A DNA stretch of 64,000 nt from Planctomycetota bacterium (GCA_044338255.1 JBIILZ010000005.1:2718-66717); one strand, 5' to 3'; numbered from the stretch's first letter, positions 36,344-56,358 are shown. Program-made: numbers and translations. The notes: generated by a model from the sequence alone, not told the origin.

Positions 36344-37357
36344 ATGATCACCGACGCGACTCCTGCAATTGGCCACGTATGTCAAGAAAACTCAGCAATT
36401 TTAGGGCTTTCTCCGGCAATCATCGATCTTCGCCGACAGTTGCCGCGGGTCGCGGCCGCTGGGCGCACGACCTTGATCGTCGGTCCGACCGGTAGCGGAA
36501 AGGAGCTCGTTGCGCGTGAACTTCATGCCCGCTCGCCACGCAGCGCGGCGCCCTTCATCGCCGTGAATTGCGGAGCCTTGCCGGACTCGCTGGTGGAATC
36601 GGAACTGTTCGGACACAGTCGCGGCGCCTTCACCGGCGCCAATGACATCCGCGCCGGTCTGGTGCCGAGCGCGGCGGGCGGGACCCTCTTCCTCGACGAA
36701 ATCAACTCGCTGACCTTGAGTGCCCAATCGGCGTTACTGCGCTTTCTTGAAAACGGCGAGTTCCGCCCGGTGGGTTCCGATCGGGTGATGAAGTCCAACA
36801 GCTGGGTGATCGCGGCCGCCAACCAGGATCTTCATCACGGCGTCGAAAGCGGATCCTTCCGTCGCGATCTGCTCTACCGCCTGGAAGTGATCCGCGTCAA
36901 GGTCCCGGCCCTGGCCATGCGCGGCGACGACATCCTGCTGCTGGCCGAACATTTCCTCGCCGAGACCGACCATGCCTACGGCTTCAGCGGTGGTGCCCGT
37001 CAGGCCCTGCTCAAGCATTCCTGGCCGGGTAACATCCGCGAGTTGAAGCATCGCGTGCTCAATGCCGCGGTACTCGGCGAAGGACCGTGGATCGAGGCCC
37101 AGGACCTTGGTCTCGCCGAGGGCCAGGTGCTGCCCTTGTCGGCGGCGGTGGGCCTCTCGAACGAGCTCTGGGGCCTGATCGAATCCGGCATGACCCTCGG
37201 CCAAGCGATCGAGCATTGTGAACGGCAGTTGATCATCGGCGCCTTGCGCGCCGAAGAGAACAATCGTACCCGGGCGGCGTCGCGCCTGGGCATCCACGTG
37301 CGCACGATCTTCAAGAAGTTGGCCGGCGAGACGAGCAACGAGACGCCCTGGGGTTGA
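36344..37357 (+). CDS. Sigma-54-dependent enhancer-binding protein lacking any N-terminal sensor/receiver domain
   Basis: Only about 25 aa precede the AAA+ core. Walker A GPTGSGKE, Walker B LFLDEI, the sigma-54 contact loop GAFTGA, and a C-terminal Fis-type HTH NRTRAASRLGIHVRTIFKKL. Confidence 0.85.
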   Translation: MITDATPAIGHVCQENSAILGLSPAIIDLRRQLPRVAAAGRTTLIVGPTGSGKELVARELHARSPRSAAPFIAVNCGALPDSLVESELFGHSRGAFTGANDIRAGLVPSAAGGTLFLDEINSLTLSAQSALLRFLENGEFRPVGSDRVMKSNSWVIAAANQDLHHGVESGSFRRDLLYRLEVIRVKVPALAMRGDDILLLAEHFLAETDHAYGFSGGARQALLKHSWPGNIRELKHRVLNAAVLGEGPWIEAQDLGLAEGQVLPLSAAVGLSNELWGLIESGMTLGQAIEHCERQLIIGALRAEENNRTRAASRLGIHVRTIFKKLAGETSNETPWG

Positions 37358-37577
37358 GTGCTCTTCCTGAATTGAGTGCCTGAATGGGCAGGCAGTGCCC
37401 GGTTAGGCACGCGGGCTATGATCGAATGGGCGTGGTTGGCGGCGAACCTTCTGTAGCAGATCGCGCGATGATCGCATAATATCCGTAAAATACCGTTAAA
37501 TTAAGCAATCTTCAGCGTTGAACAGGCGTACCTTCCGATTGGCACGGAGCGCACTGTGGTGGGACGTGAGGATTCCT

Positions 37578-39557
37578 ATGTCAGCCGTCACTCCTTGCCG
37601 TGCCCTGGTTTCTGAGCGCTTCCCGGTGGCCTCGTTCGTGGTCGAAGTACCTCCCGAACGATGCTTCGAATTGGCCTGCGCCACCGACCCCGCGCTGTTC
37701 CATCCCACCAATCAACCGCAACGCACCGCCAAGAATTTCTGGACCAGCCGCTTCGGCGGTCTGATGCGTGCGCCGGCGGGAAGGGCGACCTACCTGCTGC
37801 CGCCTGAGCAGCTGCGCCATTTCGCCGGTGCGCCGCGCCTGTACTACGCGCTCGGAACCTATGGCGGTGTCAACGGCGAACGGCCACAGTTCTCGATCCA
37901 GGCAAGTCAGCCCGAACGTATTCCTTACATCCGCATCGCCCCTGATTTTACCGGTCGTTCGCTCGATCGTCGGCGATTGGAGGGGGTCGCGGTCGGTGAC
38001 AACCGCTATGGTCGCAAGGCCCACGATCTGGTTTGGGGCGGCGATCTCCTCGAACGCGCGGCTCCCGCGCATAGTTGGCGTGGAGCTCCTGGCGATGGCG
38101 CTGCCGATGGTGCCACTGCTGATGGTGCCACTGCTGATGGTGCCACAGCGGTGCTGCTGGCACCCGCGCCGAGCGTGCGGTCTCCCGTAGCGTCGCCCGA
38201 TCTGCTCTTGGCCGATGAACCGAGCGGCTGCGAACATCCGGATGAATTAGCGACCAGCGCTCATTCCCCCGTGGCCCTCGATGTCGACGACGGCCAAGAG
38301 CCTTATGGCCGCCAACGCAGTCCACGACGGACGTCGTCTGCGCCACAGTTTTCCGCGCCACAGGCAACGCCCCGTGCTGCCCGCCCCGCCGCGCGTGCGC
38401 CTGCCGCGTATGGCCGCCGCGGCACGCGCTATGGATCAGCTGACGAGGAGACGTCCGAGAGCGTCACCGCCTGGGCCGAGCACGATCCCGATTTCAGCGA
38501 TGACGATGATGGCCATGCCACCCATGACGATGACGCTCAGCCAGTCCTGGGTTCGGCCGGCCGCAAGGTGGCCCGCCAACTGGCGGCGAGCGAACTCGAC
38601 CTTGCCGAAAAATTCCGCATCGTGCAGCTGGTCGCGGAATTTGAGTCGGGTTTGCAGACCGGTGATCTCGATCAGCCGCAACGCCGGGCCCGAGCCTATG
38701 GCGCGATCAACGCCAATACCGATGGTGCCGGTCTCTCTTGGGGCCTGATCCAATTCACCCAGAGCGGCGGCGCCCTCGGCGACGTCCTGCACGCCGCCGA
38801 GCAGCGCGATCCGGAGCAGTTCGCGGTGATCTTCGGTGCCGACAGCCAGGCTCTTCTGGCGACCACCGGCGCGGCTACCAGCAACGAACGCATGCAGCCG
38901 GTGGCGGGTGCTAATCTCTGGGAAGCGCCATGGGTCGCGCGTTTCCGCGCCGCTGGCGCCGTCGCCGCCTGTCAGGCCGCGCAAAACCAGGTCGCCATCG
39001 AACGCTACTTCGATCCGTTGCTGGCCTTCGCCGGCCGGCTGGGGTTCGATAGCGAACGGGCCCTGGCGATGCTCTATGATCGCGGCGTGCAGCAGGGCCT
39101 CGGCCGGGGACCGGCGTGGATCATGGCCGCCGCCGGTCCGATCCGTTCCGAGCGCAACGATCTGCCACGGGCCTTGCTGGCGCTCGGCCATGCCGATCTG
39201 CGTGCCTTCCAGCGCAGCGTGCCGGGCCTCACCGTCGATGGCCGTTTTGGCGCCAAATCGCATGCCGCCCTGACCGCCGCCTTGCGCGACCTGGGCAGCG
39301 CGTCGCCCTTCACCGTCAGCTCACGCGATGAGATGCTGACGATGATGGTCGCCGCCGCCGCCGACGAAGCTCAGGCCGCGGACAGCGCTCTCGCCGAGGC
39401 GCAGACCGCCCTCGCGGCCGCGCCGCAGCGCCAGGACTTGATCGCAGCCCGCGATCAGGCCCGCCGCACGCAGGTGTGGAAGCAGGCGCGCGCGCAGCGC
39501 CTGGATCAGCTGCGGCATAGTCAGGTGGTCACCGACACGCTCTATACCTGGGCCTGA
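37578..39557 (+). CDS. Cluster gene 1: unknown N-domain, acidic/disordered linker, GH46 (chitosanase/lysozyme-superfamily)-like domain, PG_binding_1 domain and a coiled-coil tail. No signal peptide.
   Basis: SD gagga lies 7 nt upstream of the ATG at 37578. ..VAEFESG..AYGAINANTDGAGLSWGLIQFTQSGGALGDVL.. resembles the GH46 catalytic region. ..FQRSVPGLTVDGRFGAKSHAALTAAL.. matches the PG_binding_1 pattern. Confidence 0.5.
   Translation: MSAVTPCRALVSERFPVASFVVEVPPERCFELACATDPALFHPTNQPQRTAKNFWTSRFGGLMRAPAGRATYLLPPEQLRHFAGAPRLYYALGTYGGVNGERPQFSIQASQPERIPYIRIAPDFTGRSLDRRRLEGVAVGDNRYGRKAHDLVWGGDLLERAAPAHSWRGAPGDGAADGATADGATADGATAVLLAPAPSVRSPVASPDLLLADEPSGCEHPDELATSAHSPVALDVDDGQEPYGRQRSPRRTSSAPQFSAPQATPRAARPAARAPAAYGRRGTRYGSADEETSESVTAWAEHDPDFSDDDDGHATHDDDAQPVLGSAGRKVARQLAASELDLAEKFRIVQLVAEFESGLQTGDLDQPQRRARAYGAINANTDGAGLSWGLIQFTQSGGALGDVLHAAEQRDPEQFAVIFGADSQALLATTGAATSNERMQPVAGANLWEAPWVARFRAAGAVAACQAAQNQVAIERYFDPLLAFAGRLGFDSERALAMLYDRGVQQGLGRGPAWIMAAAGPIRSERNDLPRALLALGHADLRAFQRSVPGLTVDGRFGAKSHAALTAALRDLGSASPFTVSSRDEMLTMMVAAAADEAQAADSALAEAQTALAAAPQRQDLIAARDQARRTQVWKQARAQRLDQLRHSQVVTDTLYTWA
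38094..38150 (+). repeat. In-frame 12/15-bp tandem repeat (DGAA DGATA DGATA DGATA) in cluster gene 1
   Basis: gatggtgccactgct units read directly. Confidence 0.95.
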
Positions 39558-39560
39558 TCC

Positions 39561-40820
39561 ATGGCTGACGCGCCTCATCTGGCCTTGGCGGCCTTGTCGC
39601 AGTTGGAGCGCAGCGCCGAACGGCTGGCGCCCAATGAACGCGCGGGATTCCGTCGGCAGCTGCAGACCATCGCCACGGTCCTCGGTGGGCACGCGGCGCC
39701 GCGGGCCACCGCCCAAGCGGCACGTGATCCGTATGCGGCGCTCTTGACCCCGGACTTGATGGTTCCGGGACGAGCTGTTCCGGCAGGAGCAGTTCCGGCA
39801 GGAGCATTCCCGGCACGCGCGGCGCACGCCGGCGCCCTCGGCACGCCGCTGGATCTGGAGGCCGAGCTCGGGAGGCAGGGCGGATCCGCTGCATCAGGCG
39901 GCGATGAGCGCGGTCCGGAACAGGCCGCGGGTACATTGCCGGCAATGGGTCCCGCTCCGGCATCCGCCGCTCCAGCGGCAAAACGCCCGGATGCCACCGA
40001 GATCATCGGCCAACGCGTCGCCACCGCCCTCGAGGCCGTGGCCTTCACCGACTTCGTCGCGGGGTTGGTGCGCGGGACCTTCCAGGCCATTGTCGACGCC
40101 ACCGCCCAGCAGATGCGCGAGTATGCCGACCTGGTGGCGAACATCTCGCGTTCGGCGGATTCGTTCACGCGCGACAACGTCACCGTGGAGCAGGCCCGGC
40201 TGTGGCTGTCGAATCGTCATGCGCTGGACCTCTACGTCGCCGTGCCGCAACCCGGCCGCGGCGGTACGCCGACCCTCTGCGTGCAGGCGCGCAGCGTCGG
40301 GCAATCGCCGGAATGGTTGGATCAGTACCAGTTGAGCGGCGCTGAGCTGAACAACGAATTGAGCGAAGGTCCGCTGCTGGCGGCGGGGCGGGCCAAGCTC
40401 GGTGAAGAGCGCTTGCAGAACCTCGCCTCGATGGTGCTGATGGGCTTGAACCGGGTGGTGGTCAAAGACGGCGAAATCGCCGCCAAGCTGCAGTTCCATG
40501 CCACGGCCCAGGATCGCAGCGCGGCGGAAGTCGCGGTCGAGAATCGTGGTCAGCAGGGCAACATTGCCCAGCGCCAGACCGAGATGAGCGCCCAGGCCAT
40601 AACCATGGTCTCGACCAACAAGGCCAACGCCCAGTCGGATGCCAACATCCGCGCCGATCTGATGGGCGAAGTGCGCATAAAATTCGCCACCGAGACCTTC
40701 AACCTCAATCAATTCGCCGACACCCAGGCGATCCAGCTGATCTCCCAGCACGCCCGCTGGCGCGGCGATGTGCCCGCCGCCGCCCCGGCCACGCCACCGC
40801 CGGCTCCTGGAAACGGCTGA
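39561..40820 (+). CDS. Cluster paralogue A (419 aa) of an unrecognised family
   Basis: Shares three blocks with ORFs at 46488, 47793, 48929 and 51093: FTDFVAGLVRGTFQAIVDA.., ..ASMVLMGLNRVVVKDGEIAAKLQF.., ..LMGEVRIKFATETFNLNQF. Starts 3 nt after gene 1. Confidence 0.8.
   Translation: MADAPHLALAALSQLERSAERLAPNERAGFRRQLQTIATVLGGHAAPRATAQAARDPYAALLTPDLMVPGRAVPAGAVPAGAFPARAAHAGALGTPLDLEAELGRQGGSAASGGDERGPEQAAGTLPAMGPAPASAAPAAKRPDATEIIGQRVATALEAVAFTDFVAGLVRGTFQAIVDATAQQMREYADLVANISRSADSFTRDNVTVEQARLWLSNRHALDLYVAVPQPGRGGTPTLCVQARSVGQSPEWLDQYQLSGAELNNELSEGPLLAAGRAKLGEERLQNLASMVLMGLNRVVVKDGEIAAKLQFHATAQDRSAAEVAVENRGQQGNIAQRQTEMSAQAITMVSTNKANAQSDANIRADLMGEVRIKFATETFNLNQFADTQAIQLISQHARWRGDVPAAAPATPPPAPGNG
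39774..39818 (+). repeat. In-frame 15-bp tandem repeat x3 (AVPAG AVPAG AFPAR) in paralogue A
   Basis: Read directly. Confidence 0.95.
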
Positions 40821-41065
40821 TGCAGACGCTCGAACAGTTCCTGGTCGTTTTGGCCGAGGCGGTGATGGCGAGCGCCGAGCACGCCACGTTGCGCGTCAGC
40901 GTCACCGACGCCGATCTCACGGTTCCGATCGAGACTCGCGCCAATCGCCACGGCGATCTGTGCGCGAGCATGCCGCGTAGCCGGCTGATCACCGGCTTCG
41001 CGCCCGTCACCAGCCGGCTGCATGCGGTGTTCGTGCGCGACGATCACGACGAGGTGGCGCCGTGA
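40820..41065 (+). CDS. 81-aa protein, possible insert-free mini-version of the paralogue core
   Basis: High GC3. The start overlaps the paralogue A stop (TGATG). LEQFLVVLAEAVMASAEHA + TLRVSVTDADLTVPIE + SRLHAVFVRDD mirror blocks 1-3. Confidence 0.6.
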   Translation: MQTLEQFLVVLAEAVMASAEHATLRVSVTDADLTVPIETRANRHGDLCASMPRSRLITGFAPVTSRLHAVFVRDDHDEVAP

Positions 41066-41964
41066 ATCCGCAACGTCCAGCGGCGACGCCGTCGGTGCCG
41101 ATCGAGGATTTCCTGCAATCGCTCGGCTCGCAGCTCGATCGCGCCCAGGATTCGCTGGCTCTCAAGGTCCGCGCCGGACGGCGTCTGACCTGGGCGTTGA
41201 AGGACATCTCGCTCGATCTGCAGGTCTTCGTCGAGCATGACCCGCGCGGGCGCGTCACTTGGCGCCACGCCGGTCCCAATGAGCAGGGGGCCAGCCGCAT
41301 CAATCTGACCTTCACCACCATCACCAAGCCGATGGTCGAGGAGAACACCAGCGAGCTCGAAGAGGATCCGCGCGGGATCGATGATATCCGCCTTCAAGCC
41401 AAGCTCAGCGAGGCTGATACTCGGCAGTTGGAATGGATGGGCATCCGCACCGTCGGCCAGTTCCGCCGATTGTCGCAGGATACCGATGCACGAGCAGTGC
41501 AGGCGGTCTCGGGCATCCCCGTCGATCGCCTGACGGCCCTGCTGCAGGCCTCAGCGCAGCCGATGGTCAGCCGCAGCGAGATCACCGCCGATCACGACGG
41601 CACGCCCCTGGTGCGCCTGTACGGCGCCAATCTGAGCGACGGCAGCCACCCGGAAGTCCGCCTCAACGGCGAAGCCATGGAGGTCGTCGAATCCCGTCCG
41701 CATCGTCTGGTCGTGCGGCCCATGGCCCATCATCGCGATGGACCGGTCGAAGTTCTCTGCGCCGCCGGCCGCGCGAGCGGCTTCATGCGCCTACCGACGC
41801 TCCCGGTAAGCGCGGAAATACCGGCAACGCCCGTGGTTCTTGCCTCCGTCGCGGTTCCCGCAGCTGTTCCTGCAGCTGTTCCCGCAGCTGTTCCCGCAGC
41901 TGTTCCCGCAGCTGTTCCTGCAGCTGTTCCCGCAGCTGTTCTCCCAGCCAGGGTGAGCCCATGA
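41062..41964 (+). CDS. 300-aa protein: mini-core-like N-terminus, HhH-like segment, IPT/TIG-like beta domain, (VPAA)x7 tail
   Basis: The GTG start overlaps the previous stop (GTGA). ..PLVRLYGANLSDGSHPEVRLNGEAMEVVESRPHRLVVRP..GPVEV.. is a TIG-like pattern. Confidence 0.55.
   Translation: MNPQRPAATPSVPIEDFLQSLGSQLDRAQDSLALKVRAGRRLTWALKDISLDLQVFVEHDPRGRVTWRHAGPNEQGASRINLTFTTITKPMVEENTSELEEDPRGIDDIRLQAKLSEADTRQLEWMGIRTVGQFRRLSQDTDARAVQAVSGIPVDRLTALLQASAQPMVSRSEITADHDGTPLVRLYGANLSDGSHPEVRLNGEAMEVVESRPHRLVVRPMAHHRDGPVEVLCAAGRASGFMRLPTLPVSAEIPATPVVLASVAVPAAVPAAVPAAVPAAVPAAVPAAVPAAVLPARVSP
41854..41940 (+). repeat. In-frame 12-bp tandem repeat x7 (VPAA) at the C-terminus of the TIG-domain protein
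   Basis: gttcc(c/t)gcagct units read directly. Confidence 0.95.
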
Positions 41965-43403
41965 ATGGCGCGGTCATCCCCGGCCAGGTGCTGGTGCGCC
42001 TGCGCCCCGGCGTGGCTCTCAGCCACACCCCCAGCCATCGCGATGTGCAGGAGGGCGAACGCATCCACGCCGCCCATCTCGATCATGGTCCGGCGGATGC
42101 CGCCATCCGCCGCCACAGTCCGGCACAGCGCGTCAGTCGCATCCATCAAGCCGCCGGCGCCCTGGGCGTTCCTGGATTTCGTCATCAGGGTTGGAGCCGC
42201 CTCGAACAGCTGCTCGGCCTGCCGCGGATGATGCGCATCGACGTCAGCAACGCCGCATCGCTGCCGCACCTGCTCGAAGATCTGCGCGCCTGCGAGACCG
42301 TCGAATCCGCCGCCCCCAACCGCCTCTGCCGCTTGAAAGTGGTCGCAGAGCAACCGCGCCTGGGCAGCGCCGTCGGCGATCCGTTTGTACGCATCGGCCA
42401 TGCCCGTGCGCGCGCACTCGAACCCGGCGATCCGACGGTGATCATCGGCATCATCGACAGCGGTGTGCGTCTCGACCATCCGGAATTTATCGGCCGCCTG
42501 CGCGCTGGTCTGGATCTCGTCGAAGTCTTCGAGGGCGCGCCCGATGGCATGACCCTGGTCGGTGATATCCGCGATCGCGATCGCATTCCCGAAGACGAAC
42601 AGGGCCACGGCACGGCCTGCGCCGGCCTCATCGGCGCGCGCGGCCTGGGTGTGCCTCCGGGCTTGGCGGGATTCTCGCAACTGCTGCCGATCCGCGTCCT
42701 GGCGGCGGCCCGCGAGATCGGCTCGCCGCCCAATGTGGTCACCGAGGCCATCGGCTCGCTGGCGGACATCGATGCCGGTTTTAAATCGGCGATCGATCTT
42801 GGTGCCCGCGTGCTCAACCTGTCGTTCGGTACGCCGGCCTCGGCGCTCTTGCCGGGCGAGCCGGTACCACACGCCGAGCTGGTGCGCTACGCGTTGGCGC
42901 GCAACTGCCTGCTGATCGCGGCGGCGGGCAATAGCGGCATCGAGGAGCGCTACTTCCCCGCCTGCCTGCCGGGGGTCATCGCCGTCGGTGCCGTCGATGC
43001 CCATGATCATCCGGCCACGTTCAGCACCCGTGGCGAGCACGTTGCCATCTGCGCCCCGGGGACGGCGATCCCAGTGGTCGGCATCAATGGCTATCAGCGC
43101 ATGAGCGGCACCTCGTTCGCCGCGCCTCTGGTCACCGCCGCCTGCGCCCTGCTCGTGGCCCGCGCCGCCCGCCAGAGCTGCTGGCTGCCGGTGAGCGCGG
43201 CGCGTACCGCCCTCTGCCAGAGCGCACGCGCTTTTCCCCAGCCCACCAGCGGGTGCGGGAGCGGTATCCTCGATGTGCCGGCGGCCTTGGCGGCGGTCGA
43301 TGACCTGCTCGCTGATCCGTTGCAGGGTAATCCCACCGACGATGTCGACAGCGAGCTTTCGCCGGAGATGGAGGAGTCGCATGCACCTGCCCTTACCCGT
43401 TGA
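41961..43403 (+). CDS. Subtilisin-like S8 serine protease with an N-terminal pro-region and no signal peptide
   Basis: Catalytic triad contexts IGIIDSGV (Asp), HGTACAGLI (His) and SGTSFAAPLV (Ser). ATGA overlap with the upstream gene. Confidence 0.8.
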   Translation: MNGAVIPGQVLVRLRPGVALSHTPSHRDVQEGERIHAAHLDHGPADAAIRRHSPAQRVSRIHQAAGALGVPGFRHQGWSRLEQLLGLPRMMRIDVSNAASLPHLLEDLRACETVESAAPNRLCRLKVVAEQPRLGSAVGDPFVRIGHARARALEPGDPTVIIGIIDSGVRLDHPEFIGRLRAGLDLVEVFEGAPDGMTLVGDIRDRDRIPEDEQGHGTACAGLIGARGLGVPPGLAGFSQLLPIRVLAAAREIGSPPNVVTEAIGSLADIDAGFKSAIDLGARVLNLSFGTPASALLPGEPVPHAELVRYALARNCLLIAAAGNSGIEERYFPACLPGVIAVGAVDAHDHPATFSTRGEHVAICAPGTAIPVVGINGYQRMSGTSFAAPLVTAACALLVARAARQSCWLPVSAARTALCQSARAFPQPTSGCGSGILDVPAALAAVDDLLADPLQGNPTDDVDSELSPEMEESHAPALTR

Positions 43404-43498
43404 GAACAGGCTGATGCGGTCCAGCCGAGTGGGCGGGGTCGAATCCGGATGCACGGGGCCGCCAGGCCCACTTGGCCCATGCCGTCGTCGGGCTCCCC

Positions 43499-43514: not shown

Positions 43515-43520
43515 GACGCC

Positions 43521-48932: not shown

Positions 48933-50200
48933 CTTATCTGCCTCCTTTGCGCTCCGTCAGCGTGGCTCCCACTTATCCGCCGCTGGCCTCGCCCATCCAG
49001 CGTCGATCGGCGCCGCCGGGTCCGCGCTATGGCCAGGTCGCGGCCCCGGTGCGGGCCCCGCAGCAGGTCGCCGACATCAGTACGCAAGTCACCCAGGCGC
49101 TGCGGCAGAATCCCGAATTCCGCAATCTGGAACCGCGCGAACGCGAAGCCCTGGAGCGCAATCTCGCCAAGATCACCGGCTATCTCAGCGATCCGGCAGC
49201 GGGTTTGCGCGGTGCGGCGCGGGCCAAGGCCCTGGCTCCGCATGAGCGTGGTCTGGCAGCGCGGGGTTTGGCCGATGATCAAGTCATCAGCGATCAGAAT
49301 CGGGTGATCACCCAACAGAATGACGGCGGGCAGATGGATCGGGGGATCAAGAATTTCAGCGGCGATGCCGCCAATGCTGGTAGCAAGGCCATGGCCGACC
49401 AGGTCCAGGCGATCAACTTCCCGAAATTCGTCGCCAGCCTGATTACCGGCGTTTTCAACGCCATCGTCGATGCCTCGATCAAGCAGATGAAAGCCTACGG
49501 TGACATGCTCGCCTCGGTGGCCAAGGCCGTCGATCAGTTCGCACAAGACCACATCACCATGCCCCAGGCCAAGCAGAATGTGCAGAAGAGCTTCCCCAAC
49601 ATCTTCGACATGATCGACAAGGGCGACGGCACGGGTAGCGATCTGAAGGTCAAGGACGGGGTCGATGCGATGCCCGATTTCAAGGCGAAATACGGTTTGG
49701 ATGAGGACGTCGACCCCACTGATCCCGAGGGCCTGGACAAGATCGTTATCGCCGCCCAGCTGCAACTGGCCCGCCAACGTCAACAGCAGCTGGCCTCGAT
49801 GGTGATGATGGGCGTCAACCGTATCGTGGTCACCGATGGCAAGATCAATGCCAAGGTCTTCATCGAGGTCAAGACCAAGGACAGTTCGACGCGCAACCGC
49901 AACATGGACCGTCATCAGAGCGACACCCAGATCCATCAGCAGGATAAACACGAGGGCAGCGTCTGGGGCACCGATGAGGAAGACACCCATGACACCCGCA
50001 TCTCGACCGCGAGTGTCAATGAGAGCGGCGGCAATGTCGATCAGAAGACCCTCGACACCAAGGCCCAGCTCACCGGGGAAGTCTCGATTAATTTCAAGAG
50101 CGACTACTTCCCCCTCGAAAAACTGACCTCGCCCGCCGATCTCACTAACATGCAAGAGATCGCGACTCCGAAGAGTGCTAAGGCACCCAGCGCAAGATGA
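48929..50200 (+). CDS. Cluster paralogue D (423 aa)
   Basis: Blocks INFPKFVASLITGVFNAIVDASIKQMKAYGDML, LASMVMMGVNRIVVTDGKINAKVFI and LTGEVSINFKSDYFPLEKL. ATGA overlap with paralogue C. Confidence 0.8.
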   Translation: MTYLPPLRSVSVAPTYPPLASPIQRRSAPPGPRYGQVAAPVRAPQQVADISTQVTQALRQNPEFRNLEPREREALERNLAKITGYLSDPAAGLRGAARAKALAPHERGLAARGLADDQVISDQNRVITQQNDGGQMDRGIKNFSGDAANAGSKAMADQVQAINFPKFVASLITGVFNAIVDASIKQMKAYGDMLASVAKAVDQFAQDHITMPQAKQNVQKSFPNIFDMIDKGDGTGSDLKVKDGVDAMPDFKAKYGLDEDVDPTDPEGLDKIVIAAQLQLARQRQQQLASMVMMGVNRIVVTDGKINAKVFIEVKTKDSSTRNRNMDRHQSDTQIHQQDKHEGSVWGTDEEDTHDTRISTASVNESGGNVDQKTLDTKAQLTGEVSINFKSDYFPLEKLTSPADLTNMQEIATPKSAKAPSAR

Positions 50201-51096
50201 ACGCCTCCGTCCCGGCAGCTTCGCGGCGGCGTCTGCCGTTCGCCTTGGCCAGTGCCGCCCGTCCGGCCTTACCGGGCCTGCCGGCATTGCGTCTGGCCTT
50301 GGCGCGCTGCGACGATCAATTGGCGCGGCATCTGGCGGCGGCAGTGGCGCGTTATGGCAGCGCCGCCCTCGACGTTGTCGACCTGCCCGATTTCGCTCCC
50401 GAAGCTATTGATGGTGAAGCCCTGCACATCGCCGCCGTGCTGCTGTGGACAGCGGAACTCGAAGCCGCCGGCCTGCCGGGTTTCCTCGAAGCCCTTGCCG
50501 AGCAGGTCGCGGATGGCCGTTGGCTGGCCGATCTCGGCAATGGCGGTATGCGCCTGCTGCGCTGGTGGCGCGAACGCAGCCAGCGCTTCACCGCCGATGA
50601 GCGCCTCGGCCTCTATCAGCGGATGTTCGGTGATGACTCCGGTTTTTCGCGGGATTTCGCGACCCTGGTCAATGCCCTCGACCAGTTGGGGCGGATCGCG
50701 GTCGGGGAAAATCCCGCGCATGTGCGGGCGCAGGTGACGCAGGCGGCGATGACCCTGGCCGGGCCGCTCAGCCGCCGGGCCACCGGCATCGCCGCCTTCG
50801 CCGCCCGCGACATCATCGCCCAGGTGCGCACGGCGATCGAGCTACTGACTCTTCCCGACATCACTGCTGCCCTGGGCGGCCAAGGGCCCTGGGCGGCGAT
50901 CCGCCTGCATGGTAACGAACTGCTCGGGCACGTGCCGGCCTGCACCGTGCACCTCGCCCGCGCTCGTGCCGGGCACCAGATCCTCACCTGGTTGGGCGAG
51001 CACGCGGCTGACCTTTCCGGCGGGATGCTCGCGGTCTCGCCCGGCGATGCCGCGGTCGATGCCGCGCAGGCGTGGCTTGCGGTCGAGGCTGGATGA
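50197..51096 (+). CDS. Cluster protein Y (299 aa), unknown, paralogous to the C-terminal half of X
   Basis: ..RFTADERLGLYQRMFG.. (50581-50630) aligns with X ..RFTEFERRSLYARTFG.. (44591-44640) with conserved flanks. ATGA overlap with paralogue D. Confidence 0.7.
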   Translation: MNASVPAASRRRLPFALASAARPALPGLPALRLALARCDDQLARHLAAAVARYGSAALDVVDLPDFAPEAIDGEALHIAAVLLWTAELEAAGLPGFLEALAEQVADGRWLADLGNGGMRLLRWWRERSQRFTADERLGLYQRMFGDDSGFSRDFATLVNALDQLGRIAVGENPAHVRAQVTQAAMTLAGPLSRRATGIAAFAARDIIAQVRTAIELLTLPDITAALGGQGPWAAIRLHGNELLGHVPACTVHLARARAGHQILTWLGEHAADLSGGMLAVSPGDAAVDAAQAWLAVEAG

Positions 51097-52631
51097 TGAC
51101 GGCGGCGGGCGCCATCCGGGCTCCGTGGTCCCACCAGCGCTCGGCGGTGTCCAAGGCTGTGCCAAAACCTCGACTGTGGGGCAGCCCCCGGGCGGCGGCG
51201 CAGCTCAGCCCCGAGCACGCGCAGGCGCAAAGCGCCGTGCGTCAGGCAGTCTCCGCCTTGGTGGCAAAGACTCCGGCGCTGCAGAGCCAGCCGCGCTTGG
51301 CGGCGGCCTTGGCCACACAATTGGAACAGGTGGCCCTCGTTGGCGCCGAGTTGCTCGCGGAGGACCGGCGCCTGACACGGCAGGTTAATGGCGCACGCGA
51401 GCAATCGCCACGCTCCCTGCGTCCACCTCTTGCACGTCCACCTTTTGCACGTCCACCTCTTGCACGTCCACCTCTTGCACACCTACCACTGGCACGCGCG
51501 CAACAAGCCAGCGAACATTTCGATCCGCGTGCCACCAATGCTGCCGCCGGGACGGTGCAGGCGCTGCGCGATGCCATCGATTTCCCGACCTTCGTGACCT
51601 CGTTGATCAACGGCGTCTTCCATTCTATCACCAGTTCGAACCTCTCGCAGATCACCGCCATCCAGGACCTGCTGAGCAATGTCACCGCCAGCTCCGATGG
51701 CTTCGCCGCCAGCAATATCAGCGACGCGCAGGTGCAGGCGTGGCTGACGTCGCGGTTTCCCTTCCTGACCCGCGGCAGCGACGGCATTCTGAGAGTGGCA
51801 CCGGAAGCCGATCTCAGCGACCAGCAGCCGACCTTGATGAGCAGCCTCGATGCCACTGCTGATGAAGTCGCGACCATTGATGAAAGCGAGCTGACGACAA
51901 CGCTACTGCCGCTGGCGCGGCGCAAGATGGGCCGCGATCGCCAGCAGGTGATGGCGACCCTGGTGATGATGGGGCTGCAGCGTGTGGTCGTCGATGATGG
52001 CCGTCTGCATGCCTCGATGGAGTTGCAGGTCGATGCGCGCAGCGCCGCCGAGCAGATGGAGGCCAGCCAGTTCGACACGCGCACTACCGCGGGAGTCTCG
52101 GCCAGCGCCAGTGCCGGACCATGGGGAGCCAGCGCCAGTGTCAGCACCACGGTCGGTTATGTGCGCAGCGATGCCCTGCATACCCAAGAAGAGATCGCCG
52201 CCCGCGCCGGACTGCGTTCGAGCGTCGATCTGACCTTCCGTACCGAGCAGGTGCCCTTGGACCGCATGGCCGATCAGCAGGCGCGTCAGGCGATCATGGC
52301 CCGCACGCCGGTGCCGACGAGCTGGAGCAATGCATCGCTGCTCGATCAGGGGAGCCACCTTAGCGCGCCGACATTTACCGCGCCGCCGGCTTTGCCCGCT
52401 CCACCGCCCGCTCCACCGCCCGCTCCACCGCCCGCTCCCGCTCCGCCAGCGAGTCGCCCGCCGGCGCCACCAGTCGTATCGCCGCCAGCCGCCAGTCGTG
52501 CACCGGCGCCACCGGCCGCTTCACCACCGGTCGTATCACCACCGGTCGTATCACCACCAGTCGTAGCACCACCAGTCGCATCATCACCGGTCGCGGCACC
52601 GGTGGTCTCACCCGCGCCACCGGCGCGTTGA
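51093..52631 (+). CDS. Cluster paralogue E (about 512 aa), the most divergent, with a roughly 90-aa Pro/Ala/Val-rich tail
   Basis: Blocks IDFPTFVTSLINGVFHSITSSNLSQITAIQDLL, VMATLVMMGLQRVVVDDGRLHASMEL and LRSSVDLTFRTEQVPLDRM. The start overlaps the Y stop. Confidence 0.75.
   Translation: MMTAAGAIRAPWSHQRSAVSKAVPKPRLWGSPRAAAQLSPEHAQAQSAVRQAVSALVAKTPALQSQPRLAAALATQLEQVALVGAELLAEDRRLTRQVNGAREQSPRSLRPPLARPPFARPPLARPPLAHLPLARAQQASEHFDPRATNAAAGTVQALRDAIDFPTFVTSLINGVFHSITSSNLSQITAIQDLLSNVTASSDGFAASNISDAQVQAWLTSRFPFLTRGSDGILRVAPEADLSDQQPTLMSSLDATADEVATIDESELTTTLLPLARRKMGRDRQQVMATLVMMGLQRVVVDDGRLHASMELQVDARSAAEQMEASQFDTRTTAGVSASASAGPWGASASVSTTVGYVRSDALHTQEEIAARAGLRSSVDLTFRTEQVPLDRMADQQARQAIMARTPVPTSWSNASLLDQGSHLSAPTFTAPPALPAPPPAPPPAPPPAPAPPASRPPAPPVVSPPAASRAPAPPAASPPVVSPPVVSPPVVAPPVASSPVAAPVVSPAPPAR
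51420..51494 (+). repeat. In-frame 15-bp tandem repeat x5 (RPPLA/RPPFA) in paralogue E
   Basis: cgtccacct(c/t)ttgca units read directly. Confidence 0.95.
52398..52595 (+). repeat. Composite in-frame tandem repeats in the paralogue E tail: 12 bp x3 (APPP) and 15 bp x5 (SPPVV-like)
   Basis: gctccaccgccc x3 (52398-52433) and tcaccaccggtcgta-type units (52521-52595), read directly. Confidence 0.9.
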
Positions 52632-52646
52632 TCGGGAGCTTCTGCC

Positions 52647-55304
52647 ATGTCTGCGCTCATCGTCATCCGGCCTGCAGCCCTTGCTCTTCTCACTCAACGC
52701 TGTGCGACGGCGATCAGCGCCGCTCCGCACCTGGCGGCGGTGGTCGAGCAGGTGCTGCTGCCAGTGCGTACGCTGCAGGCCCTCGCCGATCTGGCGGTGC
52801 CCGCCCTCGGTGATGATCCGCCGGCGGCAGAGCGCCTGCGCCTGCTGCTGGCGGCGGTGGCGACACCGTTCGAGATCGATCACGACGCCGCCCAGCAGGC
52901 CCTGGGCACGCCGAAAAAGCTCGCTCCTTCGATGGTCGATGCGAGCGCTGCCGATACCGGTTTCGTGTGGCCGGCCGAGGCCCTGGTCGATCTCGGCGCG
53001 GTGGTGATCCTGGGTCTGGCCTGCATCCGCGCCGGCGCTCCGCTGGGTCTGGGCAGCAGCTTGTTGGGGACCTTGTCGGGATTGGTCTTGGCCACCAGTC
53101 CCGCGGAAGCTGTGTTGCGCTGGCTGCGTCTGGCCACCGATGACACGCATTTCACGACTTTTCTCGCGACTTTTTCCGAGACCGCCGCTGGCCGTAGCGG
53201 ACTCTATCGCACCTTCGCTCGGCAGCTGCTGGTCGATCAGGGGGAGCGGGCGCGGTGGCGCTGCATCTTGGCGCTGTTCGGAAGGAAAGGCCTGCAGGCC
53301 GATGCCCGCACCCAGCAGGGATGGATCGCGGCCCATGCCGACGGTTTGCAAAGCCTGCACGCCGAGGCCGGTGATGATCGTTATCGCTTGGGTGGAAATT
53401 TTCCGCCACGCACCGCCAGCACCGCATCGGGATCGTTGGCGGTTGCCGTGGTCGGGCGTCGTGGGGTCCTGCCCGAGCGCCTGTGGGCCGAGGTCTTGGA
53501 ATGGACCGACCTGAACATCCTCGTGCGCATCTCCGGTGGCATCGCCGGTGGGTGGGTGGGTTTCAGCTCGAGCGGGCTGGTTGATAGCGCCAATAAATTG
53601 CGCCTCGGTTTGCGTGAACGCTGGCGCACTCCACCGCTACCGGGTCTTGAGGATGTGCCGGTGGAATTGATCCCGCTCATCCCGGCGATTCCTCGTCCGG
53701 CGCGAGTTTTGACGGCGCCGCCGCTACAGATCATCGCCGTCACCCAGGAGGGGGTCGACGGGCCGCCATCGTGGCGCGTGGCTCCGGGCGAGCGCGTGCG
53801 CGTGGTGGTCAGCATCAGTTCCGGCGGACAACCGGCATGGGCGTGGATCGATGGCGCGAGCACGGCGCGCAGCCGGGTCGAGAAAGATCGCATCGTACTC
53901 ACCGTACCGGCGGGGCTCGGAAAACCCGGCGCACGGGTGACGGTGAAGCTCGCCGAAGCCCCGGAAGCCGAGGCGGTTGATGAGCAGTCGATCGGCCCCA
54001 TACAGCGCCTGCCGGTACAGCGCGTGGTGCTGATCCTGCCGACGCTCGTGGCCGGCAATGACACCGAGAATCTCGATGATGCGGTGCTGACGCCACGCCG
54101 CGCCGATGCCGCCTTGGCCGCTGCCGCCCGGCGCACGGGCGTCATCATCCAGCGTCAGTGGTTGCCGGCGGTCGATGACGATCTGGCGGTGCTCTATGGC
54201 CCGGTGAATCCACAGGACGGACGTCTCGGCGGCATCCTCTCGGCCCTCCAGCGCACCGCGGTGTGCACGCCAGGCGCAGAGGATGCGCTGTGGCTGGCAT
54301 TGCTGCCCGGTGATGACGCCTGGCAACGCCATCAACCGGCGACCGCGGCGGCGTTGGTGGCGGTGGCGACCGTCGCCGGTCTGGACGAGCTGCTAGCAAG
54401 CGTGCTCGAAAGCGGTGAAGCGCCGATGACCGAGCCGCAGGAGGTCCTGCGCTTGGCCGGTTCCGTCGATCGCCAGGGCGGCATCGCCTGGCAGTCAGTG
54501 CGTCAGGAATCCAGACGTCTGCCAGCGCTGCGGGCATCTCTGGCGAGCGCACCGCTCCATCATCCCTCGCTCATTGCGGCGGTGCTCGATGCCCAGGGTC
54601 GCGTGATCCATGAACAACCGCTGCTGAGCGTGGCGCCCTTGGCCGACGATCATCTGGCGCTGCTGATCCCGCTTCCGACGGCGGCGGTAGCGGTCGAAAT
54701 CCGCCAGCGTTTCACCACCGCCGTGGTCAGCGATCATGATGTCACGGTGGCGCGTGTGGTGCGTCCGACGTCGTCGTTGCAGTTGAGTGCGTCATTGGAT
54801 GGCGACCGCGTGCAGTGGCAGGTCAGCCAAGCCGACGGACTGCCGGAATTCCTGACCTTGGAAGCGGCCTTGGCTGCACCTCAGCAACTGGGCCAGACCG
54901 ACATCGACCAGCCCGCGCCGGAATCATCGTGGACGATCCTCGAGCGCTGGAGCGCCTGCTGCGGCGAACAGCGTCAGCCGCAGTGGTCGCGTTACGCTCT
55001 GCGTGGCGTCTCCGCGCTGCGCCTGGTTGGCGACGATGGTTGGCACAGCGTCGCCGTAAAGCTTTCGGGGCCGCCGCCGAAACCTGCCGAGAGGCTGCGC
55101 ATCCGGCGCATGGCCGATGGCCGGCTGTGGGCGGATGGAACCGGTACGCCAGCGTGGTCTGCCGCCGGTGTGGCTGTTGGAGGTCAGCGGCTGCTGAGCG
55201 TGGAACAGCCGGGGAAGGTCGAACTGCGCATGCGCAGCGGTTCGCGCACGGTGCGCGATCACCTTGCCATCGCCCTGACCGACATGGGAGTCTTCGATGG
55301 CTAA
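52647..55304 (+). CDS. Cluster protein F (885 aa), unknown. Possible TM hairpin near residues 115-160 and a TIG-like beta segment.
   Basis: SD gggag upstream. Hydrophobic GAVVILGLACIRAGAPLGLGSSLLGTLSGLVLAT. ..LQIIAVTQEGVDGPPSWRVAPGERVRVVVSI..RIVLTVPAGLGKPGARVTVKL is beta-sandwich-like. Confidence 0.7.
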   Translation: MSALIVIRPAALALLTQRCATAISAAPHLAAVVEQVLLPVRTLQALADLAVPALGDDPPAAERLRLLLAAVATPFEIDHDAAQQALGTPKKLAPSMVDASAADTGFVWPAEALVDLGAVVILGLACIRAGAPLGLGSSLLGTLSGLVLATSPAEAVLRWLRLATDDTHFTTFLATFSETAAGRSGLYRTFARQLLVDQGERARWRCILALFGRKGLQADARTQQGWIAAHADGLQSLHAEAGDDRYRLGGNFPPRTASTASGSLAVAVVGRRGVLPERLWAEVLEWTDLNILVRISGGIAGGWVGFSSSGLVDSANKLRLGLRERWRTPPLPGLEDVPVELIPLIPAIPRPARVLTAPPLQIIAVTQEGVDGPPSWRVAPGERVRVVVSISSGGQPAWAWIDGASTARSRVEKDRIVLTVPAGLGKPGARVTVKLAEAPEAEAVDEQSIGPIQRLPVQRVVLILPTLVAGNDTENLDDAVLTPRRADAALAAAARRTGVIIQRQWLPAVDDDLAVLYGPVNPQDGRLGGILSALQRTAVCTPGAEDALWLALLPGDDAWQRHQPATAAALVAVATVAGLDELLASVLESGEAPMTEPQEVLRLAGSVDRQGGIAWQSVRQESRRLPALRASLASAPLHHPSLIAAVLDAQGRVIHEQPLLSVAPLADDHLALLIPLPTAAVAVEIRQRFTTAVVSDHDVTVARVVRPTSSLQLSASLDGDRVQWQVSQADGLPEFLTLEAALAAPQQLGQTDIDQPAPESSWTILERWSACCGEQRQPQWSRYALRGVSALRLVGDDGWHSVAVKLSGPPPKPAERLRIRRMADGRLWADGTGTPAWSAAGVAVGGQRLLSVEQPGKVELRMRSGSRTVRDHLAIALTDMGVFDG

Positions 55305-56358
55305 CATCGGGGTGACCGCCGCCCGTCGTAGCTCCGCCAGCAGCCGCGACCCGGCCAACGGCTGGGCCTGCGACCTAGTGGCGGATCTGCGCAGTTTGCT
55401 GATTGGCAACGGCCATGAGTGCGTCGAGACCTCGACGGGGCTTGAGCCCTTGGCCATCCAGCTGCTGATCGGCGTCGAGCCGGCGCGCGCCGATGCGCCG
55501 ATGCGCGCCGATATCGCTATCGCCGATGAGTCGCCGCCCGGCACGCAGGGCAACGATGATGCCAGCTTTGACCTCGCTGCCCGGCTCTACGATATCCTCC
55601 CCGAACTCGGTGCGGAACCGGCCTGGCCGGTGTTGGAAGGCGATATGCAGGCGCATGCCGCCTGCGCCTTGCGCGTGGCGCTGCCTGGCGGAAGCGCAGG
55701 CGATGCCGGTGCCCGCCGGCATTTGGCGCAGCGCGTGGTGGTGGCAGTCGAGGCCCATCTGCAGGCGATGCGTCGGCGGGCCTATGGCTTCCGCATTGCG
55801 GGCGCGGCGCGGCCGCGGATCAATCTACGCTATGAAGTCCCGCTGGTGCCGCAGACCACCGAGATGAGCTGCTGGGCTGCGGCGGCGGCAATGGTCGTCG
55901 GCTGGCGCGATCAGATTGCCGTTGATACCGAGGAGATCGCGCGCGGCACTGGCGGCTGGGAAGCCTATCGCGCCGGCCTGCAGCCTGACGACGTGGTGAC
56001 TTTGGCGCGGGTCTGGGACCTGACCATCGAAGCGCCGCGTACCTACGCCTCGGCCGACCTCGAAACGCTGCTACGCCGCTGCGGTCCACTGTGGGTCGGT
56101 CAGGCCGATCCCGATCTGCACGTCATCTGCGTCGTCGGTGTCAGTGGCGACGGCACCGCCGATGGCACCTTGGTGCAGGTCAACGACCCCTGGCCTCCGG
56201 GACGCGGCGAACGCTACTCGCTGACCCTCGGCGAACTCGCCGGCAACTTCCACACCGCCGCCGCCCTGGTCGGTCTGCACATCCAGATCCTTCATGGCAA
56301 TGGCCGGCGTCAGCGCACGCCCCGGGAGGGCCTGAAGGTGCAGGGCAGCAGAGCATAA
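55297..56358 (+). CDS. Papain-like cysteine peptidase (C70/AvrRpt2-like or C39-like fold) with an unknown 170-aa N-domain
   Basis: ..VPLVPQTTEMSCWAAAAAMVVGW.. (Gln/Cys), ..DLHVICVVGVSGDG.. (His), ..LVQVNDPW.. (Asp/Asn). 8-nt overlap with F. Confidence 0.6.
   Translation: MANIGVTAARRSSASSRDPANGWACDLVADLRSLLIGNGHECVETSTGLEPLAIQLLIGVEPARADAPMRADIAIADESPPGTQGNDDASFDLAARLYDILPELGAEPAWPVLEGDMQAHAACALRVALPGGSAGDAGARRHLAQRVVVAVEAHLQAMRRRAYGFRIAGAARPRINLRYEVPLVPQTTEMSCWAAAAAMVVGWRDQIAVDTEEIARGTGGWEAYRAGLQPDDVVTLARVWDLTIEAPRTYASADLETLLRRCGPLWVGQADPDLHVICVVGVSGDGTADGTLVQVNDPWPPGRGERYSLTLGELAGNFHTAAALVGLHIQILHGNGRRQRTPREGLKVQGSRA

Follow-up and report, generated by a model that had tools for sequence, protein, structure and literature searches.

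Architecture of the gene cluster

The window analyzed here, a 64,000-nucleotide stretch of a Planctomycetota bacterium genome (GCA_044338255.1, JBIILZ010000005.1:2718-66717), contains between positions 36,344 and 56,358 a compact cluster of 15 genes, all on the + strand, in which a sigma-54 enhancer-binding protein (EBP) precedes 14 genes encoding mostly proteins without annotated relatives (Table 1). A prediction made from the sequence alone (hereafter the original prediction) had described this region as a coherent, undescribed, sigma-54-linked multi-gene system. Our analysis supports that view and bears out the 15 open reading frames (ORFs), their coordinates, and their junctions. Downstream of the EBP gene, the cluster encodes a protein with a lysozyme-like region (G1), paralogue A, an 81-aa protein (s81), a 300-aa protein (T300), and an S8 subtilase, separated by junctions of +3, -1, -4, and -4 nt. 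After a gap of 207 nt follow X, a putative prenyltransferase-like protein (P354), paralogues B, C, and D, protein Y, paralogue E, protein F, and a C70 protease, with junctions of +26, +85, +6, -4, -4, -4, +15, and -8 nt. The GC content of the cluster (0.62-0.69) is like that of the rest of the window.

Apart from the EBP, the S8 and C70 proteases, and G1, the remaining 11 proteins yielded nothing usable in searches against Pfam (all of them), NCBIfam (all but D), and PADLOC and PHROGs (eight of them; B, D, E, and C70 were left out of these two scans). The earlier claim that ten of the proteins carry no assignable motif needs qualification for s81 and T300, which may be Trypco2/Pepco-like, T300 also having a TIG signal (see below). 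The absences listed at that time were also confirmed, since we detected no signal-like or transmembrane (TM)-like segment in any core protein by a hydropathy scan, no nucleoside triphosphatase besides the EBP, and no match to capsid, sheath, or tube proteins. The hydropathy peaks found outside F came from the AVPA repeat of T300 and from the buried active-site helix of the S8 protease. Such a lack of signal peptides and TM helices suggests that the system acts from inside the cell.

Table 1. Genes and putative regulatory elements of the cluster, with positions counted from the first nucleotide of the window
Feature	Position	Strand	Support
EBP, sensor-less sigma-54 enhancer-binding protein of PspF-like architecture	36344..37357	+	Sigma54_activat E=1.5e-58, AAA_lid_14, HTH_8
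Two palindrome-like sites, GTGCC-N5-GGGCA and GTGCCC-N4-AGGCAC, candidate EBP sites (upstream activating sequences)	37376..37410		Sequence reading
Sigma-54 -24/-12-like element TGGCACggagcGCAC, 38 nt before the first ATG	37540..37554	+	TGGCAC perfect at -24, degenerate at -12
G1, constant ~160-aa N-domain, disordered linker, lysozyme-superfamily (GH46-like) region, peptidoglycan-binding-like motif, coiled C-terminus	37578..39557	+	
Paralogue A, 419 aa	39561..40820	+	BLASTP vs B-E 1e-21 to 5e-35
s81, 81 aa, helix then beta strands, possible stand-alone Trypco2/Pepco-like protein	40820..41065	+	
T300, Trypco2/Pepco-like N-domain (aa ~9-90), double helix-hairpin-helix, IPT/TIG, AVPA-repeat tail	41062..41964	+	
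S8 subtilase with ~150-aa N-terminal extension	41961..43403	+	Peptidase_S8 E=1.6e-35
X, 566 aa, mostly alpha-helical, C-terminal half homologous to Y	43611..45311	+	
P354, possible distant DMATS/ABBA-type aromatic prenyltransferase-like protein	45338..46402	+	17/42 family members match Trp_DMAT, best E=2.2e-4
Paralogue B, 432 aa, longest loop (105-112 aa)	46488..47786	+	
Paralogue C, 379 aa	47793..48932	+	
Paralogue D, 423 aa, type-1 loci only	48929..50200	+	
Y, 299 aa, homologous to the C-terminal half of X	50197..51096	+	BLASTP 4e-17
Paralogue E, 512 aa, long Pro-rich repeat tail	51093..52631	+	
F, 885 aa, orphan, type-1 loci only	52647..55304	+	
Peptidase_C70 (AvrRpt2 family), ~170-aa N-domain without family match	55297..56358	+	PF12385 E=4e-31

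A gene order conserved across distant phyla

Relatives of the cluster occur in at least 224 genomes, out of a scan of one genome per GTDB species, which belong to about ten phyla. Their hosts include Planctomycetota, Myxococcota, Gemmatimonadota, Acidobacteriota, Cyanobacteria, Chloroflexota, and Bacteroidota (Chitinophaga), as well as Burkholderiales (Ramlibacter, Cupriavidus necator A5-1, Rhizobacter, and Albitalea), Lysobacteraceae, Bradyrhizobium, Nevskia, and Thiodiazotropha. From these 224 genomes we fetched 85 loci, whose gene content was counted by tblastn with the full set of 15 proteins. The genes are arranged in like order in these 85 loci, well past anything that chance would give, a very strong synteny of the kind that the original prediction had suggested looking for. 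The window is 99-100% identical to two contigs (L007 and L025) of a Planctomycetota metagenome-assembled genome (MAG), and three distant genomes share the gene order, a complete one from Myxococcaceae and two MAGs, from Alphaproteobacteria and from another Planctomycetota bacterium. This order comprises the EBP (unseen in the Alphaproteobacteria locus), proteins of ~600-700, ~370, ~80, and ~270 aa, the S8 protease, proteins of ~530-570 and 353-355 aa, three paralogues (four in the Alphaproteobacteria), a ~290-aa protein, and a further paralogue.

Over the 85 loci, the core consists of A, T300, S8, X, P354, B, C, Y, and E, in an order that is constant essentially everywhere; A is present in all 85 and S8 in 68, the other loci being truncated. 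Type-1 loci, which include the window and those of Myxococcota and Thiodiazotropha, add D, F, and a terminal C70 protein to this core. Type-2 loci, found in Burkholderiales, Lysobacteraceae, Acidobacteriota, and Chitinophaga, lack D and F and carry a DUF3467 gene after the EBP gene. Type 2 is more abundant, and the relatives of its A protein number at least 1308. A reduced form (type 3) resides on plasmids of Tolypothrix PCC 7601/7712 and contains genes for an α/β-hydrolase, S8, a peptidoglycan-binding protein, one X-like protein, one paralogue, and s81-like and T300-like proteins, without P354. The copy of Tolypothrix sp. PCC 7601 (L087, NZ_CP064881.1, 33358-44576) lies on a mobilizable plasmid of this model cyanobacterium and encodes two orphans of 721 and 436 aa. 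This plasmid variant may represent a minimal form of the system and a tractable model for its study.

The patchy spread over ~10 phyla at ~50% identity indicates that the cluster has been horizontally transferred, and both the plasmid copies and the transposase-/recombinase-like ORFs adjoining the cluster are consistent with this. The earlier remark that the cluster is not an obvious recent import therefore holds as regards composition, with its host-like GC content, but not as a sign of vertical inheritance, given this distribution. The cluster family was absent from 50,697 phage records and 2.9 million viral contigs (IMG/VR). A phage origin was also considered and rejected on the basis of these searches.

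Sigma-54 control and transcription

The activator at the head of the cluster had been predicted to be sensor-less, which the domain searches corroborate. Its AAA+ domain begins at residue ~14 and is followed by an HTH_8 domain, and it aligns to the NCBIfam models of NorR, NtrC, and NifA only from its own residue ~14, covering of NorR and NtrC just the central and DNA-binding domains, and to that of PspF from the first residue of PspF; this leaves no sensor domain. It keeps the Walker A (GPTGSGKE) and GAFTGA motifs, and in Myxococcota, Planctomycetota, and Burkholderia, as well as in loci from metagenomes, the cluster is likewise headed by an EBP of 302-347 aa. In the spacer before the first structural gene, the window contains the palindrome GTGCCC-GGTT-AGGCAC (37395-37410) and, at 37376-37390, a looser version of it. 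Spacers of type-1 loci (L001, L004, L029, and L072) share the palindrome (A/G)TGCCC-N4-GGGCA(C/G) at this place, and we infer that these sites are bound by the EBP.

In this spacer, seven other loci have a GG-N10-GC element comparable to the -24/-12-like one of the window, at a distance of 34-116 nt from the start codon of the first gene, for example TGGCATGCGGCTTGCC in L089, TGGCACGGCCCGTGCA in L004, and TGGCCCGCTCCTTGCG. A sigma-54-like site precedes the first gene in 8 of 15 loci, as compared with 2-15% for internal genes, and the pattern is not enriched in the window as a whole (69 matches vs 80 expected). Sigma-54/EBP regulation of the cluster is well supported. By contrast, the division into two operons, before and after the gap between S8 and X, that had been proposed is probably wrong. 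This gap measures only 60-120 nt in other genomes, and sigma-54-like sites, seen before 6 of 75 homologues of X, show no enrichment there. Inside the cluster, the search for sigma-70-like sites gave none (vs 2.1 expected), nor is there a + strand terminator between S8 and X. Since there is neither a conserved internal sigma-54 site, nor a sigma-70-like site, nor a terminator at this place, positions 37578-56358 probably form one sigma-54 transcription unit. A candidate second sigma-54 promoter before X (cGGctgcaacgTTGCc at 43500) was discarded, as it is not conserved in an 83%-identical relative. The same spacer contains, at 43521-43552, a 9-nt tandem repeat (GTCGCAAAA/GTTGCAAAA) that behaves as a variable number tandem repeat, given that the near-identical L025 has two extra copies and the 83%-identical L006 has none.

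An activator made only of AAA+ and HTH domains must be controlled in trans. This architecture, and its position adjoining the presumed target operon, are shared with the PspF/PspA and HrpR/S-HrpV circuits. However, the cluster EBP is not a PspF equivalog (236 bits vs a cutoff of 444), and we recognized no PspA/ESCRT-III-like or HrpV-like partner. In type-2 loci, the place expected for such a partner is occupied by the DUF3467 gene, which the window does not have. This gene (118-135 aa) is always situated between the sensor-less EBP and the first structural gene, both in type-2 loci and in Burkholderia pyrrocinia (L088, 6956-7312; L089, 6348-6728; L086, 3403-3810). Its product is a candidate trans-acting partner of the activator.

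Orphan protein families of the cluster

The core of the cluster includes three orphan families, namely paralogues A-E, the X/Y pair, and the N-domain of G1; F is a fourth one, restricted to type-1 loci. The paralogy originally noticed among A-E, and between X and Y, is confirmed by BLASTP (mutual E-values of 1e-21 to 1e-54 for A-E and 4e-17 for X against Y). No profile or structure match, which the original prediction had named as a ground for its refutation, places A-E, X/Y, or F in a known machine, and searches of PDB sequences with single proteins and with profiles gave no family for any of them. Paralogue C has at least 374 homologues, of which every named one is annotated as hypothetical and none has a precomputed Pfam domain. 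With a hidden Markov model (HMM) of this paralogue we retrieved 2005 clusters at 50% identity (E≤1e-3) among 1.84 billion representatives. Pfam scans of individual members of the paralogue families produced only scattered noise (DUF6683, Chlamy_scaf, and Phasin_2).

The paralogues (380-510 aa) are conserved over their full length. The loop between their 'GxNRIVV' and 'FKSE' strands measures 69 aa in A, 105-112 in B, 80-87 in C, about 80 in D, and 77 in E, and its length is kept for each paralogue type across phyla. C, D, and E usually have one Trp at the loop tip. Such type-specific loop lengths suggest that each paralogue has a fixed place in a hetero-oligomer. The AlphaFold2 model of C (34 sequences; mean predicted local distance difference test (pLDDT) score of 66.6, above 90 for the helical core residues 140-235) shows, next to the core, which includes a small hairpin, a helical hairpin at the N-terminus and a Pro-rich tail. 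Four long strands were modelled with low confidence, as were the long beta hairpins, which have a 'PWG' tip. Foldseek found nothing significant for this model, with best E-values of 0.017 (PDB) and 0.045 (BFVD) and template modelling (TM) scores of ~0.1. The top neighbours, none of them significant, were the FliF collar, lysenin, iota toxin, and phage portals, in which one might see at best a hint of ring or pore formers with long hairpins.

X yielded a confident fold (AlphaFold2 model from 42 sequences; pLDDT 79.6, with 283 residues ≥90) for which Foldseek identified no neighbour in the PDB (best E=0.55, TM score ~0.1), and it has no Pfam or PDB-sequence match. Y has no family match in Pfam, NCBIfam, PADLOC, or PHROGs. 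F, present in 22 of the 85 loci, lacks matches in these four databases and in the PDB, and contains two borderline hydrophobic segments (Kyte-Doolittle peaks at aa 112-130 and 569-587).

For P354, the proposed likeness to prenyltransferases finds weak support at the level of the family, in which 17 of 42 members match Trp_DMAT. The window protein itself has no such match, and searches of PDB sequences, including a profile search, found nothing. The residues R72, R96, K146, Y148, Y149, R194, and Y326 are invariant and R328 is nearly so, a pattern compatible with, without being diagnostic of, the ten-stranded alpha-beta-beta-alpha barrel of ABBA enzymes and its diphosphate-binding Arg, Lys, and Tyr residues. 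P354 may be a distant relative of the dimethylallyltryptophan synthase (DMATS)/ABBA prenyltransferases. Comparison of the families of the cluster with one another by hhalign (s81, the T300 N-domain, the C-terminal half of the paralogues, X, and P354) revealed no significant link.

A putative protease-gated pore module

The genes for s81, T300, and the S8 protease are joined by 4-nt overlaps, and their order is kept in type-1 and type-2 loci. Their counterparts are also all kept in the Tolypothrix variant. The S8 assignment of the original prediction was verified by a strong Peptidase_S8 match, and the catalytic Asp, His, and Ser motifs (IIDSG, GHGTA, and SGTSFAAP) are present. The best NCBIfam model is mycosin, at 146 bits vs a cutoff of 279. 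In Pfam and NCBIfam we detected no sensor or other domain in this protein beyond its N-terminal extension, which lacks a family match.

Of the two proteins encoded upstream of the protease, s81 and, in T300, the N-domain may be Trypco2/Pepco-like, with matches below threshold. The names Trypco1/2 were given to small proteins found in conflict systems together with trypsin-like peptidases (Kaur et al., eLife 2020, PMC7159879); the current name is Pepco (Evans et al., bioRxiv 10.1101/2025.11.14.688446). The gene of Pepco, a protein of 117 aa, immediately precedes one for a Ser or Cys protease. The protein assembles constitutively into 9-10-mer β-barrels that resist SDS, and these become pore-forming toxins after the protease trims the tail behind a conserved Ile (Ile97-Arg98) (bioRxiv 10.1101/2025.11.14.688446). 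In the family of T300, 11 of 36 members scanned singly match Trypco2 (PF19631; best E=1.7e-4), whereas the T300 protein of the window has no Pfam Trypco2 match at E<0.01. IPT/TIG is matched by 13 of 36, one of them above the Pfam cutoff, so that the TIG segment noticed earlier in this protein is a feature of the family. The middle part of T300 contains a double helix-hairpin-helix, with one DUF4332 match. The Trypco2-like part closes with a nearly invariant motif, TTI(T)(R/K)PMxEEN (aa 85-95), which includes Ile87; the Tolypothrix homologue has GTIRD there.

A conserved ORF of 73-88 aa occupies the s81 position in type-1 and type-2 loci, and the s81 profile finds a 122-aa protein of the Tolypothrix variant (1.5e-8). 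The size of s81 and its layout of a helix followed by strands are as in Pepco. In a mixed set of s81, Y, F, G1 N-domain, and DUF3467 sequences, without T300 and with members not told apart, 4 of 57 matched Trypco2 (best E 0.0094). Through the translational coupling of s81, T300, and S8, the cluster would have one or two Pepco-like genes where these canonically occur, in front of the protease. The features reminiscent of known Pepco-protease modules are a small domain of a helix and strands encoded directly upstream of a serine protease, recurrent though sub-threshold Trypco2 matches, and a conserved Ile that closes the domain and may correspond to the cut site of Pepco; membrane permeabilization would be the expected outcome here too. 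Combining sub-threshold homology and gene position, this likeness of s81 and of the T300 N-domain is our strongest mechanistic lead.

Modular wall-degrading and proteolytic enzymes

The original prediction had called the first structural protein GH46-like. We did recover this match for G1, although only below threshold (Pfam E=3.9e-4, 20.6 bits vs a cutoff of 27), and a match to the PDB chitosanase 6lwu at E=0.013. The peptidoglycan-binding motif LTVDGRFGAKSHAAL was recognized by eye only, and the hydropathy scan showed neither a leader peptide nor a hydrophobic segment in G1. Searched with an HMM, the N-domain turns up a single time in each locus, with E-values from 1e-32 to 1e-84. Its partners change: the lysozyme-like region in type 1, Amidase_2 and trypsin in L088, and C70 in L089; in Burkholderia pyrrocinia it is carried by a 1254-aa amidase. 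Amidase_3 is a further partner. From such a constant adaptor domain, joined to wall-degrading modules that can be exchanged, it follows that the degradation of wall or protein is an output of the system and that the enzyme is physically recruited.

The terminal protein of the window had been identified as a papain-like protease, which the Peptidase_C70 match and the motifs SCWAAA, LHVICV, and NDPW confirm. Its orthologue in Myxococcaceae is fused to Amidase_3, and in type-2 loci the C70 module lies inside the first gene. The 3′ end of the Myxococcaceae locus carries Amidase_3-C70, Amidase_3-trypsin, and VanY genes, the last two being extra genes behind the cluster. The gene that follows the last paralogue varies, being a 2294-aa WD40/beta-propeller giant in the Alphaproteobacteria MAG (L002, 15889-21191) and a 1151-aa protein with an adenylate/guanylate-cyclase domain, followed by a patatin-like phospholipase, in L086 (19792-24389). 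The slot behind the last paralogue may be a variable one for cargo or sensors.

Sequence repeats and flanking regions

Several coding tandem repeats of 12-30 nt are in frame in the window, at 38101-38146 (ADGAT, G1), 39762-39817 (VPAGA-type, A), 41854-41941 (AVPA x7, T300 tail), and, in E, at 51420-51496 and 52394-52600 (Pro-rich PPLAR and PPVVS). The repeat-bearing linkers and tails appear to be expanding in the lineage of the window. Directly downstream of the cluster, inspection of N-terminal sequences by eye suggested a transposase-like ORF (57136-58245) and a serine-recombinase-like ORF (59841-61202), and the GC content drops from ~0.65 to 0.59 and then 0.52 (60000-64000). By these N-terminal sequences and the composition, a mobile-element border may lie beside the cluster on this side. 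Upstream of dnaE, at 26970-31019, a MoxR-like AAA+ ORF, a 377-aa ORF, and a 684-aa ORF resemble by eye a MoxR/DUF58/transglutaminase-like trio.

A possible envelope-breaching system and its alternatives

Pepco-like modules placed before the S8 protease and a constant G1 N-domain with swappable modules point to the logic of a protease-licensed pore combined with wall lysis. They also shift the balance toward a conflict or effector system, which the original prediction had offered as an alternative to its reading of proteolytic maturation and wall passage, both of which remain plausible. We tentatively propose, with somewhat less than an even chance of being right, that the products of the cluster breach the envelope from the cytoplasm by means of a protease-licensed pore and a wall hydrolase, under a sigma-54 switch. 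The EBP would bind the palindromes downstream of its own gene and drive from the -24/-12 promoter one long transcript of all 14 downstream genes, a step that is well supported. The s81 protein and the N-domain of T300 may then pre-assemble as beta-barrels, and S8 may cleave T300 near Thr-Thr-Ile-Thr-Arg/Lys-Pro, freeing the barrel from its helix-hairpin-helix (HhH)-TIG tail and making it membrane-active. Four or five paralogues and X/Y would form a defined hetero-oligomer, whose long Ser/Thr/Ala-rich hairpins, with Trp tips in C, D, and E, might build or widen the membrane lesion. S8 or C70 may trim the Pro-rich tails of the paralogues, and the DMATS-like enzyme may lipidate one component. As its domain architecture suggests, the leaderless G1, recruited via its constant ~160-aa N-domain, would reach and cut the peptidoglycan. 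The outcome would be a controlled permeabilization or lysis of the producer, with cell suicide, release of content, or export of lytic enzymes against neighbours as candidate ends. We infer the Pepco step from weak homology and gene position, and the roles given to A-E, X/Y, P354, and C70 are similarly conjectural.

Several observations weigh against this proposal. The Trypco2 matches of T300 are all sub-threshold (13-16 bits vs a gathering cutoff of 24.2) and cover residues ~9-57, that is, model positions 2-44 of 78 and only the first half of the model. By hhalign, s81 and the T300 N-domain are collinear over 74 columns without reaching significance (P=0.035), and the paralogues have no detectable link to either of them. 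Known Pepco proteases are fused to sensors (Avs/STAND, FGE, or a peptidoglycan-binding domain), unlike the S8 protease of the cluster, and the tails that they remove measure ~2 kDa, as compared with the 20-kDa, 200-aa HhH-TIG module of T300. PADLOC-DB 2.0 returned only a generic 'subtilase' and a weak IetS match for S8, and none for the other nine proteins scanned. At the promoter of the window, the -12 half is degenerate (GCAC). A suicide or lysis function has no obvious need of four to five paralogues, X/Y, and a prenyltransferase, and ~50% identity across phyla would suit a structural machine better than immune genes, which evolve fast. Two further differences from Pepco modules concern the setting, which is here an operon of 12-15 genes under sigma-54 with three orphan families, a prenyltransferase-like enzyme, and wall hydrolases, and the control, which here looks transcriptional and not post-translational.

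Alternatively, the cluster might encode a particle released by lysis, as in the main reading of the original prediction. A-E, X/Y, and F would self-assemble in the cytoplasm, S8 and C70 would mature them, the prenyltransferase would modify them, and the Pepco-like proteins and the wall hydrolase would constitute an exit cassette of the holin-endolysin kind, as in the loci of tailocins and extracellular contractile injection systems (eCIS). The layout of regulator, lysis, and structural genes does resemble that of tailocin clusters, the locus has a dedicated regulator and several lytic enzymes, no core protein carries an export signal, the structural families are strongly conserved with a loop length fixed for each paralogue type, and X has a confident novel fold. 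However, Pfam, PHROGs, PDB, and BFVD gave no signal of capsid, sheath, tube, baseplate, encapsulin, or gas vesicle, and the sheath, tube, baseplate, and spike of type VI secretion systems (T6SS), eCIS, and tailocins were not found with Pfam, PHROG, and NCBIfam or by Foldseek of C and X. The viral data sets mentioned above lack the family, and the Tolypothrix variant, with one paralogue and one X-like protein beside S8, s81, and T300, would be thin for a particle. The likeness to the holin-endolysin cassettes of phages and tailocins, and to 'type 10' secretion, lies in leaderless modular hydrolases with interchangeable catalytic domains that need a partner for inner-membrane passage. Here, by contrast, no small cluster protein has a TM-like segment, so that a holin-like protein is missing, there is no phage context, the hydrolase has a system-specific N-domain, and ten further conserved genes have no counterpart. 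We consider a particle rather unlikely.

Sigma-54 control is also common to type III secretion systems (T3SS), T6SS, and flagella, and the cluster might be a leaderless export conduit, in which the paralogues, X/Y, and Pepco-like barrels would build a trans-envelope channel, the hydrolase would clear the wall, and the swappable enzymes and 3′ genes would be cargo, leaving the producer unlysed. Against such a channel, neither an ATPase nor another source of energy is encoded, and TM helices are missing, as are secretins or other parts for the outer membrane; the loci inspected have no immunity-like gene with a signal peptide, and the system is also present in Chloroflexota and Cyanobacteria, whose envelopes differ. 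A constant N-domain with swappable toxic or lytic modules is nonetheless a hallmark of secreted polymorphic effectors, the 3′ genes vary (WD40 giant, cyclase, patatin phospholipase, amidase-trypsin, VanY), and many hosts are predatory or antagonistic soil bacteria (Myxococcota, Lysobacter, Chitinophaga, Cupriavidus, and Burkholderia). In comparison with type VII secretion (ESX), only S8 resembles a component, mycosin, and no ATPase, WXG100, or TM protein was found. Multi-component pore-forming toxins (ClyA-family Ahl/Smh/Hbl and bicomponent leukocidins) share with the cluster adjacent paralogous subunits of 350-450 aa with helical bodies and a predicted refolding or inserting segment. They differ in having no sequence or fold similarity to its proteins (SmhA appears only at Foldseek E=2.2 for X), and in being secreted against foreign membranes, whereas here there are no export signals and four to five paralogues. 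A conduit appears improbable to us.

Even less credible, to the point of being nearly negligible, is a pathway for ribosomally synthesized and post-translationally modified peptides akin to that of cyanobactins (PatA/PatG with PatF/LynF), in which a PatA/G-like S8 and a PatF-like ABBA prenyltransferase would cut a peptide out of s81 or a paralogue and prenylate it. The cluster does combine in one operon a subtilase, which matches the NCBIfam PatA/PatG subfamily at 5.6e-26, far below the cutoff, and a protein with a weak DMATS-like signal, and a small ORF adjoins the protease. Nevertheless, the s81 family shows conservation of the C-terminal half without a hypervariable core, the paralogues are large and conserved throughout, no heterocyclase, macrocyclase domain, oxidase, or exporter is encoded, and P354 is missing in the Tolypothrix variant. 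The partners of the two enzymes are here large conserved proteins.

Novelty and biological meaning

We found no description of the cluster in the searchable literature (open-access PMC and bioRxiv), and we rate it as new as a system, its sole tie to known biology being the sub-threshold Pepco resemblance of two small modules, together with generic enzymes. If the Pepco link holds, part of the logic of the cluster would be an elaboration of a known protease-gated pore. In its broader form, the envelope-breaching proposal is that of a class of bacterial nanomachines, switched on by sigma-54 in many phyla, in which A-E, X/Y, the G1 N-domain, and Pepco-like barrels perforate the membrane and wall of their own cell, licensed by proteolysis and possibly prenylated. 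We hold this to be not far short of an even chance.

Whatever its function, the cluster is a system of 12-15 genes with an order kept across many phyla, among them Pseudomonadota with three classes, and most of its proteins without an annotated relative. If our proposal is true, it would take the newly described Pepco pore, activated by a protease, beyond immune modules of two genes and into a large machine gated at transcription, provide the first function for a DMATS-like enzyme outside secondary metabolism, and explain how a leaderless wall hydrolase can be deployed without a holin. Programmed lysis or leaderless release would also gain a route that is new and has no relation to holins, gasdermins, or the numbered secretion systems. 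With their constant adaptor, the swappable lytic modules amount to a collection of wall-degrading enzymes provided by nature, and the sensor-less activator is a simple experimental on-switch. As copies of the cluster exist in cultured strains of Burkholderia, Ramlibacter, Lysobacter, Cupriavidus, Bradyrhizobium, and Tolypothrix, the system is directly testable.

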